The notes below the pieces were generated by a model. That model ran no database searches and was not told the origin of the DNA. It saw only the letters and a list, made by a program, of their open reading frames with translations. From NCBI RefSeq assembly GCF_003790525.1, contig NZ_CP033635.1: DNA of 64,000 nt. One strand, given 5' to 3'. Both the position numbers and the translations under genes were made by a program. Shown here piece after piece: positions 41,335 through 48,757 of this stretch; the first letter of the stretch is position 1, and each line of letters begins with the position of its first letter. The DNA comes from Escherichia coli. GTDB taxonomy: Bacteria; Pseudomonadota; Gammaproteobacteria; Enterobacterales; Enterobacteriaceae.

Positions 41335-41480
41335 GTAACGGTAAAGCCCTCACCGAAGCGAGGGCTTGAAGGAGAAGGGTTATGATGCGACTTGTCATCA
41401 TACTGATTGTACTGTTACTCATAAGTTTCCCAGCTTATTAACAGTCAGTCTCAGGGGAGGAGTCATCCTCCCTTACCCTT
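41335..41480 (-). ncRNA. sibC: SibC (RygC) antisense sRNA, antitoxin to ibsC; ends approximate
   Basis: Antisense to ibsC; candidate minus-strand promoter TTGACA-N17-TAATTT around 41488..41516; 3' end not resolved. Confidence 0.4.
41382..41441 (+). CDS. ibsC: type I toxin, Ibs family small hydrophobic peptide (19 aa)
   Basis: Hand translation: MMRLVIILIVLLLISFPAY, stop TAA; SD ggagaagggtt upstream; in serA-fau intergenic region where K-12 carries ibsC/sibC. Confidence 0.7.
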   Translation: MMRLVIILIVLLLISFPAY

Positions 41481-41541
41481 ACTCACTAAATTAGGTTAAA
41501 GAATCAACGATGTCAATCAGGGCGATGCAGGTGTGTCGCCC

Positions 41542-42162: not shown

Positions 42163-42348
42163 AGGGAATCTCCGAGATGCCGCCGCAGGCTGTAACCCTT
42201 GAACCCTTGGTTCAAGGTGAATGTGTCGTCGCAGTTTTAAGGCTTCTCGGACGGACCGAGCATGCTCACCAACCGCGGAGCGCCACATTCTTGTGGTATG
42301 AAATATCGGCTCAGGGGACTGGCCCGCTTGCGAACATCTCAGAGAAAT
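42163..42348 (-). ncRNA. ssrS: 6S RNA
   Basis: Minus strand reads AUUUCUCUGAGAUGUUCGCAAGCGGGCCAGUCCCCUGAGCCGAUAUUUCAUACCACAAGAAUGUGGCGCUCCGCGG...GGAGAUUCCCU, matching remembered 6S RNA; directly upstream of fau. Confidence 0.9.
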
Positions 42349-46013: not shown

Positions 46014-47216
46014 ATGCAAAGTGTTGATGTAGCCATTGTTGGTGGCGGCATGGTGGGGCTGGCGGTTGCCTGCGGCTTACAGGGGAGCGGCTTACGCGTT
46101 GCTGTACTGGAGCAGCGCGTACCGGAACCTCTGGCGGCGGATGCACCACCACAACTGCGCGTTTCGGCTATCAATGCCGCCAGCGAAAAATTACTCACCC
46201 GTCTTGGCGTCTGGCAGGACATTCTCTCTCGTAGGGCCAGCTGTTATCACGGTATGGAAGTGTGGGACAAAGACAGTTTTGGTCACATCTCGTTTGACGA
46301 TCAAAGCATGGGCTATAGCCATCTTGGGCATATCGTTGAAAACTCAGTGATTCACTACGCGCTGTGGAACAAAGCGCAGCAGTCGTCAGATATCACTCTG
46401 TTGGCCCCCGCAGAATTACAGCAGGTCGCCTGGGGAGAAAATGAAACCTTCCTGACGTTGAAAGATGGCAGTATGTTAACGGCGCGTCTGGTGATTGGCG
46501 CGGACGGCGCTAATTCCTGGTTGCGCAACAAAGCAGATATTCCGCTGACTTTCTGGGATTATCAGCATCACGCGCTGGTAGCGACCATTCGCACGGAAGA
46601 ACCGCATGATGCGGTGGCGCGGCAGGTTTTCCATGGCGAAGGCATTCTGGCCTTTTTACCGCTTAGCGATCCGCATCTTTGCTCGATTGTCTGGTCACTG
46701 TCGTCAGAGGAAGCGCAGCGGATGCAGCAGGCAAGTGAAGACGAATTTAATCGCGCGTTAAATATCGCTTTTGATAATCGCCTGGGCTTATGCAAGGTTG
46801 AGAGCGCGCGTCAGGTGTTCCCACTGACGGGGCGTTATGCGCGCCAGTTTGCCGCGCACCGTCTGGCGCTGGTGGGCGACGCCGCGCATACCATTCACCC
46901 GCTGGCGGGGCAGGGGGTAAATCTTGGCTTTATGGATGCTGCAGAGCTGATTGCTGAACTGAAACGGTTGCATCGTCAGGGTAAAGACATCGGGCAGTAC
47001 ATTTATCTGCGTCGCTATGAGAGTAGCCGCAAGCACAGTTCGGCGCTGATGCTGGCTGGTATGCAGGGATTCCGTGATCTGTTTTCCGGTACCAATCCGG
47101 CGAAAAAACTGCTGCGTGATATTGGTTTGAAACTGGCCGACACGCTTCCTGGCGTTAAACCACAACTCATCCGCCAGGCAATGGGATTAAACGATTTGCC
47201 TGAATGGCTGCGTTAA
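46014..47216 (+). CDS. ubiI: 2-octaprenylphenol hydroxylase (FAD monooxygenase)
   Basis: 400-aa ORF MQSVDVAIVGGGMVGLAVACGLQGSGLRVAVLEQ matches UbiI (VisC). Confidence 0.92.
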   Translation: MQSVDVAIVGGGMVGLAVACGLQGSGLRVAVLEQRVPEPLAADAPPQLRVSAINAASEKLLTRLGVWQDILSRRASCYHGMEVWDKDSFGHISFDDQSMGYSHLGHIVENSVIHYALWNKAQQSSDITLLAPAELQQVAWGENETFLTLKDGSMLTARLVIGADGANSWLRNKADIPLTFWDYQHHALVATIRTEEPHDAVARQVFHGEGILAFLPLSDPHLCSIVWSLSSEEAQRMQQASEDEFNRALNIAFDNRLGLCKVESARQVFPLTGRYARQFAAHRLALVGDAAHTIHPLAGQGVNLGFMDAAELIAELKRLHRQGKDIGQYIYLRRYESSRKHSSALMLAGMQGFRDLFSGTNPAKKLLRDIGLKLADTLPGVKPQLIRQAMGLNDLPEWLR

Positions 47217-47662
47217 AAATTTCTCTTCTGTTGTTTATTTGATACCCATCACACTTTCATCTCCCGGTTTTTTCGCCGGGAGATTTTCCTCATTTGAAAT
47301 AAACTAATTTCACCTCCGTTTTCGCATTATATTTTCTAATGCTATGATTTTTTGATTTAGTGTTTTTTGACATTTTTTTAGTTCTTAATATTGCCTTATT
47401 CAAATTAACTTTCTAATGGCATCATCTTTATATAGAAACTAGAGTGTTTTTTGGTTTTTTATTCTGTCGCGATTTTGGCGTTTTTTAACCATAAGCTAAT
47501 GTGATGATCAATTTTACCTTATGGTTAACAGTCTGTTTCGGTGGTAAGTTCAGGCAAAAGAGAACGATTGCGTTGGGGACCGGGAGTGGCTCCGATGCTG
47601 GGTTTCGTGGTGATAATTTCACCATGAAAAGTTGTCAGCCCCGCTTATTCAATGAGGACAAG

Positions 47663-48757
47663 ATGGCACAACAGACTCCTTTGTACGAACAACACACGCT
47701 TTGCGGCGCTCGCATGGTGGATTTCCACGGCTGGATGATGCCGCTGCATTACGGTTCGCAAATCGACGAACATCATGCGGTACGTACCGATGCCGGAATG
47801 TTTGATGTGTCACATATGACCATCGTCGATCTCCGCGGCAGCCGCACCCGGGAGTTTCTGCGTTATCTGCTGGCGAACGATGTGGCGAAGCTCACCAAAA
47901 GCGGCAAAGCCCTTTACTCGGGGATGTTGAATGCCTCTGGCGGTGTGATAGATGACCTCATCGTCTACTACTTTACTGAAGATTTCTTCCGCCTCGTTGT
48001 TAACTCCGCCACCCGCGAAAAAGACCTCTCCTGGATTACCCAACACGCTGAACCTTTCGGCATCGAAATTACCGTTCGTGATGACCTTTCCATGATCGCC
48101 GTACAAGGGCCGAATGCGCAGGCAAAAGCTGCCACACTGTTTAATGATGCTCAGCGTCAGGCGGTGGAAGGGATGAAACCGTTCTTTGGCGTGCAGGCGG
48201 GCGATCTGTTTATTGCCACCACTGGTTATACCGGTGAAGCGGGCTATGAAATTGCGCTGCCCAATGAAAAAGCGGCCGATTTCTGGCGTGCGCTGGTGGA
48301 AGCGGGTGTTAAGCCATGTGGCTTGGGCGCGCGTGACACGCTGCGTCTGGAAGCGGGCATGAATCTTTATGGTCAGGAGATGGACGAAACTATTTCTCCT
48401 TTAGCCGCCAACATGGGCTGGACTATCGCCTGGGAACCGGCAGATCGTGACTTTATCGGTCGTGAAGCCCTGGAAGTGCAGCGTGAGCATGGTACAGAAA
48501 AACTGGTTGGTCTGGTGATGACCGAAAAAGGCGTGCTGCGTAATGAACTGCCGGTACGCTTTACCGATGCGCAGGGCAACCAGCATGAAGGCATTATCAC
48601 CAGCGGTACTTTCTCCCCGACGCTGGGTTACAGCATTGCGCTGGCGCGCGTGCCGGAAGGTATTGGCGAAACGGCGATTGTGCAAATTCGCAACCGTGAA
48701 ATGCCGGTTAAAGTGACAAAACCTGTTTTTGTGCGTAACGGCAAAGCCGTCGCGTGA
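47663..48757 (+). CDS. gcvT: glycine cleavage system T protein (aminomethyltransferase)
   Basis: ORF 47501..48757; [41 protein letters not shown] matches GcvT. Confidence 0.95.

Follow-up and report, generated by a model that had tools for sequence, protein, structure and literature searches.

The long AT-rich gap before gcvT in Escherichia coli very probably corresponds to the known transcription-factor control region of the gcvTHP operon and has two conserved hairpins in its leader

For the gcvTHP operon of Escherichia coli, GcvA reportedly occupies three sites (-271/-242, -242/-214 and -69/-34), the PurR footprint is said to extend from -3 to +17, and a CRP site is reported to lie far upstream of gcvT. 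These GcvA spans are equal in length to the footprints described in PMC5002191, in which GcvA protects a 57-bp and a 35-bp region upstream of gcvTHP, with CTAAT and ATTA-N7-TAAT motifs. A model in which GcvA, GcvR and Lrp together form a DNA loop at this operon came from Stauffer laboratory work and is summarised in PMC13104608.

The locus studied here is the 446-bp gap (47217-47662) that separates the end of ubiI (47216) from the gcvT ATG (47663) in the window, a 64,000-nucleotide stretch of an E. coli genome (contig NZ_CP033635.1) that runs in the reverse orientation of MG1655 and to which the features annotated by RefSeq on an identical genome transfer position for position; gcvH and gcvP follow downstream of gcvT. 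A first-pass annotation, made from the sequence alone, had described an AT-rich, non-coding leader of about 450 bp at this place. The length and composition are as it described (GC content is 0.357 overall and 0.26-0.32 within 47200-47500, compared with 0.518 for the window), and the run that it quoted is present as T6 at 47363-68, GACA and T7 at 47373-79. The word "leader", in contrast, fits only the last 104 nt (47559-47662), which would be the part transcribed with gcvT given a start at 47559; these have a GC content of 0.51 and are not AT-rich, the AT-rich part lying upstream of the promoter. Among the 45 intergenic gaps annotated in positions 1-52161 of the window (median 92 bp), this one is the longest, and no other gap of 100 bp or more has so low a GC content (the mean of that group is 0.46). 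We therefore take the observation as real and do not regard it as a chance fluctuation. The segment is found once each in 5425 of 5426 complete E. coli genomes.

Over its 446 bp, the gap is 96.4% identical to the ubiI-gcvT spacer of E. coli K-12. Of the 5425 genome matches, one falls on a record whose label is that of a plasmid; a single genome is without the region. In strain YZ22PE165 (NZ_CP139130.1) the match is limited to query positions 52-446 and is found twice, so that the sequence around the CRP site and the terminator may have been rearranged or interrupted by an insertion. Elsewhere in the window, the only two Rfam matches at the gathering threshold are a Sib antitoxin RNA (41366-41516, minus strand), opposite ibsC (41382-41441), and 6S RNA (ssrS; 42165-42348, minus strand).

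We are confident in identifying this gap with the region through which transcription factors control the gcvTHP (glycine cleavage) operon, which is already known. Table 1 lists the features that lead us to this reading, together with those that bear on its alternatives.

Table 1. Features of the ubiI-gcvT gap in window coordinates; positions relative to +1 assume a gcvT start at 47559, and protein-binding sites are predictions.
Feature	Position	Strand	Description
CRP-like site TTTGATACCCATCACA	47238..47253		9/10 core positions of TGTGA-N6-TCACA; centre at -313.5 from the inferred start
Candidate ubiI transcription terminator	47259..47296	+	10-bp GC-rich hairpin (47259-47284), then UUUCCUCAUUUG
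Predicted upstream GcvA region, sites 3 and 2	47288..47345		inferred -271 to -214
yqfI, 27 aa, MSKNTKSKNHSIRKYNAKTEVKLVYFK	47290..47373	-	RefSeq CDS, 84 nt; b4754 in K-12
Candidate Lrp tract	47346..47482		AT-rich, T-tract-rich spacer; GC 0.263
Predicted GcvA site 1	47485..47528		inferred -69 to -34; CTAAT at 47496-47500
Predicted core promoter	47542..47559	+	extended -10 TGgTAAGTT (47542-50); inferred start 47559
PurR operator-like box AAGAGAACGATTGCGT	47558..47573		11/16 positions of ACGCAAACGTTTGCGT; overlaps +1
Leader hairpin HP1	47570..47598	+	+12 to +40; GGAG in apical loop
Leader hairpin HP2	47603..47629	+	+45 to +71; 11-bp stem burying an upstream AUG (47624)
gcvT Shine-Dalgarno and start codon	47654..47665	+	GAGGA at 47654-58, start codon at 47663-65; block invariant across species

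We infer the gcvT start site by fitting the positions of the CRP, GcvA and PurR motifs together. With the start at 47559, the CRP centre, the three GcvA CTAAT motifs and the PurR box all agree with the positions given for these proteins, and we favour this start because four independent footprints are satisfied together. The promoter that would serve it has no good -35 element (TGGTTA at 17-bp spacing); a poor -35 combined with an extended -10 is what one expects of an activator-dependent promoter. A consensus promoter scan called no gcvT promoter at 47542-47559. Its lone match, TTCGCA-16-TATGAT with a TG (47321-48, plus strand), points toward gcvT from within GcvA site 2, and was rejected as a real promoter, being within chance expectation. 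The core of the PurR box, AACG(A/T)TTGCG, occurs in 71 of 77 loci, always equally far from the ATG. We count the agreement of this box with the consensus at only 11 of 16 positions, the poor -35 and the blank promoter scan against the control-region reading.

At the far end of the gap, the position of the CRP-like site (47238-53) agrees with that of the mapped gcvT CRP site, which we take to be centred at -313, and the score of 9/10 is also that of the Escherichia and Citrobacter loci, whereas Enterobacter and Lelliottia have 8/10. Between this site and GcvA site 3 sits the hairpin of the candidate ubiI terminator (fold energy -17.6 kcal/mol, z -5.6). Its tail, UUUCCUCA, contains 4 U in 8, and we attribute the fact that a consensus terminator scan did not call it to this weak U-tract.

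The distal GcvA region contains CTAAT at 47304-08 and at 47336-40, the latter within an ATTA-N7-TAAT motif (47326-40) in site 2. An inverted repeat of 15 nt, TTAACCATAAGCTAA / TTACCTTATGGTTAA (47485-99 / 47514-28), encloses site 1, which hardly varies among 61 species or among 11 Escherichia alleles. A motif search found four CTAAT in the gap, of which one, at 47413, is particular to the haplotype of the window strain. That motif, which reads CTCAT in K-12, is located in the second copy of a 20-nt direct repeat (TTTCTAATG..., at 47333-47352 and 47410-47429, 77 bp apart). The first-pass annotation had expected a GcvA/Lrp/CRP/PurR control region here; the matches for GcvA, CRP and PurR, together with an Lrp-like tract, are consistent with that expectation and have a self-consistent geometry, and we presume from these sequence matches that the proteins bind the predicted sites in the window strain.

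For Lrp, the candidate tract at 47346-47482 shows an AT-rich, T-tract-rich composition and a conserved length, the Lrp motif being too degenerate to score. The tract overlaps the Lrp-binding, DNA-bending region, which is presumably -229 to -92 (47330-47467 in the window).

Comparison between species gives the predicted sites a background against which to be judged. We fetched 80 gcvT loci from different Enterobacterales species; in nearly all of them ubiI and gcvT are neighbours, and the gap is typically 400-450 bp. An alignment of 61 species contains conserved blocks at 47247-58 (the right half of the CRP site), 47289-47315 and 47320-41 (GcvA sites 3 and 2), 47483-47528 (site 1), 47537-75 (the -10 element, +1 and the PurR box) and 47653-62 (the Shine-Dalgarno sequence). 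These blocks coincide exactly with the predicted sites, and those of GcvA sites 3 and 2 are nearly invariant. In the same alignment, the tract from 47346 to 47482 is poorly conserved between genera. Its length is nevertheless fixed: over dozens of genera, the distance from the CTAAT of site 3 to that of site 1 is 192-193 bp in nearly every Enterobacteriaceae locus, and the DNA between them diverges. This is the pattern predicted by a loop that depends on helical phase and passes over Lrp-bent DNA, and the fixed GcvA spacing therefore provides independent comparative support for the loop model. In Erwinia typographi and Pantoea coffeiphila the ubiI-gcvT gap measures 1.1-1.7 kb, probably as the result of an insertion. 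The Serratia, Rahnella, Rouxiella and Hafnia loci are without the PurR box and the leader element.

The same tract is also hypervariable within E. coli: among 9 genomes, 30 of its 137 sites vary, in a few distinct haplotypes, as against about 2% of sites in the leader and promoter. Its divergence between the window strain and K-12 is 8.8%, compared with 2.6% at four-fold degenerate sites of gcvT and 5.1% at those of ubiI. Recombination, relaxed constraint or a mutational bias of T-tracts may account for this hypervariability.

The predicted order of elements on the plus strand (CRP site, ubiI terminator, GcvA sites 3 and 2, an Lrp tract of about 140 bp, GcvA site 1, promoter, PurR box, leader) suits the established mechanism, which comes from the Stauffer laboratory and is summarised in PMC13104608. 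When glycine is lacking, GcvA and GcvR at the distal and proximal sites close a repression loop, for which Lrp must bend the DNA. Glycine frees GcvR, and GcvA then activates RNA polymerase. PurR adds a mild repression by purines and CRP an input from the carbon source. Glycine is thus sensed by proteins on the DNA and not by a riboswitch.

The alternative that fares best holds that the functional core of the gap is a cis-regulatory RNA in the gcvT leader (a riboswitch, an attenuator or a protein-binding element), with the upstream DNA secondary. We consider it unlikely. A scan of the whole window against Rfam at the gathering threshold returned neither a glycine riboswitch nor any other family in the gcvT gap; at E values up to 10, a search of 47100-47800 gave nothing relevant (matches to Yfr1, RsaE and HOTAIRM1, at E>0.3, were rejected as chance), and 14 orthologous loci yielded no family and no glycine riboswitch (RF00504). 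The first-pass annotation had seen no glycine riboswitch-like structure and had named an Rfam scan as the check; the first statement holds, RF00504 being absent at all thresholds used, and the scan gave no structured-RNA match.

The leader is, all the same, structured. It contains two hairpins, HP1 and HP2, that are kept by compensatory changes in about 65 Enterobacteriaceae species, and orthologous leaders of quite different sequence fold alike. Both hairpins are more stable than shuffled controls. HP1 has a fold energy of -16.8 kcal/mol (z -2.9) on the sense strand and of only -6.2 kcal/mol (z -0.5) on the antisense strand; its reliance on G-U pairs confines the fold to the sense strand. For HP2 the fold energy is -14.9 kcal/mol (z -5.2). 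In a sequence-only MAFFT alignment of 53 distinct leaders from 53 species, 91.8% of cells are paired in HP1, as compared with 18-65% when the partner columns are slid; 5 of its 9 pairs have changed on both sides, and none of 500 shuffles reaches the observed covariation. In HP2, 65 sequences show changes on both sides at 6 of the 7 modelled pairs, and 83.7% of cells are paired. When 22 seeds were used to build a covariance model, it recovered the element from 67 of 81 sources, with one match in each locus; its own alignment shows 88.6% pairing over both hairpins, a figure inflated by the fitting of the alignment to the model.

These hairpins are the sole element of the gap for which we found no earlier description in the literature or in Rfam, and the DNA-level model leaves them unexplained, which we count against the control-region reading. 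Neither the loops nor the linker between the helices is conserved, and the leader lacks a junction of several helices in which a ligand might be held; we therefore read the element as one acting on stability, on translation or through protein binding rather than as a ligand sensor. The hairpins probably tune mRNA stability or translation. A GGA in a hairpin loop together with a GGA in the Shine-Dalgarno sequence is the usual layout of CsrA sites, and hints at CsrA here: GGA lies in or beside the apical loop of HP1 in 37 of 71 species, and the Shine-Dalgarno sequence contains a further one. However, GGA is absent in Klebsiella and others, and a literature search found no support for gcvT as a target of CsrA or GcvB in E. 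coli; a preprint on 3′-end mapping does not mention gcvT. In favour of an RNA element, HP1 is followed by a U-rich stretch in most species; against it, this U-tract is short and displaced. The strongest conservation, moreover, is in the upstream DNA sites, which argues against giving the RNA the leading part. We tentatively propose, as a possibility to which we attach limited belief, that the gcvT leader of Enterobacteriaceae contains an uncatalogued, covariation-supported two-hairpin element that adds a post-transcriptional layer to the control of gcvTHP; the mechanism may be CsrA acting on the loop GGA and the Shine-Dalgarno sequence, pausing or attenuation, or control of mRNA decay. If this is true, an operon thought to be controlled solely by DNA-binding proteins gains an extra layer.

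Two small ORFs overlap the hairpins. One begins with the upstream AUG at 47624, which the 3′ arm of HP2 contains. In the window strain this AUG shares the gcvT frame and would lengthen the protein by 13 residues; K-12 has one more A (A5, as against A4 in the run at 47627-30), which turns it into a 10-codon uORF. Both A-run alleles are common, with 1527 and 1954 exact matches among 5425 E. coli genomes. We rejected this AUG as a uORF or alternative start, as its frame varies between common alleles, some strains have lost it and HP2 buries it; it is unlikely to matter. A 10-codon ORF at 47595-47627 (plus strand) has its AUG in the 3′ arm of HP1 and a GGAG 8 nt upstream in the HP1 loop; it was rejected as a leader peptide, its start codon being ACG or GUG outside Escherichia.

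The upstream part of the gap is where the description of the stretch as non-coding has to be amended: it fails for 47290-47373, the minus-strand CDS yqfI, and the stretch is thus not wholly non-coding. The "cat" in the run that the first-pass annotation quoted, tttttgacattttttta, is the yqfI ATG. The gene is annotated in RefSeq, and in K-12, where it is collinear (b4754, between gcvT and ubiI on the opposite strand), the SPA-tagged protein was detected from a chromosomal tag and a ribosome-profiling signal was noted (VanOrsdel et al., PMC6001520). YqfI is therefore translated in K-12; the predicted product of the window allele is identical to the K-12 protein at 25 of 27 residues.

One could accordingly suppose that the AT-rich part is mainly a protein-coding locus, made up of yqfI and its promoter, and the 27-codon length is indeed intact in the window, in K-12 and in two other Escherichia lineages. 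We judge this very unlikely. In Citrobacter and most other genera the frame has stops or no start, while the DNA of its C-terminal half, which overlaps GcvA sites 3 and 2 (the frame also reaches the edge of the Lrp tract), stays conserved; the conservation of the C-terminal codons is thus explained by the GcvA sites beneath them and not by the protein. The codons that vary do so almost entirely in a nonsynonymous manner (about 11 nonsynonymous and 2 synonymous variants in ten intact alleles; codons 9-11 read NHS, NNG, IRG, NHD, IRD or NHG), and one complete genome, NZ_CP073988.1, has a frameshifted copy. On the minus strand we found neither a Shine-Dalgarno sequence nor a convincing -35/-10 pair for yqfI, whose promoter must be placed in the AT-rich spacer (47346-47482), and NCBIfam has no family for YqfI. 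Judging from these alleles, yqfI looks young and weakly constrained. As a translated ORF found only in Escherichia and lying atop transcription-factor sites, it offers a clear case for considering how genes arise de novo and how regulatory DNA comes to be annotated as "non-coding".

That the gap is a foreign or H-NS-silenced AT-rich insert without specific function is hardly credible: its low GC content (0.26-0.31, against 0.52 for the window) and its high polymorphism within E. coli would suit such an origin, but the idea is contradicted by synteny and a gap of about 400-450 bp kept across about 70 species and by conserved motif blocks at fixed spacing, and no mobile-element ends or repeats were found in the gap.

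We therefore return to the control region as the preferred reading, under which a textbook regulatory region accounts for this gap, the longest and richest in AT, and leaves it, as an unknown, a clean negative. Its closest known counterparts include the gcvTHP region of K-12, in which all recognisable motifs and their spacing are identical to those of the window; no difference between the two strains falls in the promoter, the PurR box, GcvA site 1 or the leader hairpins. The 17 substitutions that distinguish them are clustered in the Lrp tract and in yqfI (with 2 amino-acid changes); the window also has the A-run at 47627-30 shorter by 1 nt and the extra CTAAT at 47413. The arrangement is also that of LysR-type loops, in which a pair of upstream sites and a proximal T-N11-A/CTAAT-type motif are held at a fixed distance, as they are here across species, and an architectural protein bridges the distant and proximal sites. 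Among these, a separation of about 190 bp is unusually long, and the gcv loop depends on Lrp and not on tetramer bending alone.

With respect to its small protein, the locus belongs with the Escherichia-restricted tagged small proteins of VanOrsdel et al. (2018), of which yqfI is one, with the same length; unlike the others, it lies inside an array of transcription-factor binding sites. Finally, the glycine riboswitch (RF00504) of Bacillus, Vibrio, Neisseria and others has in common with this locus the downstream gene, gcvT, and the signal, glycine, whereas the gcvT leader here consists of 104 nt with two simple hairpins, and E. coli senses glycine via GcvR and GcvA (PMC13104608).
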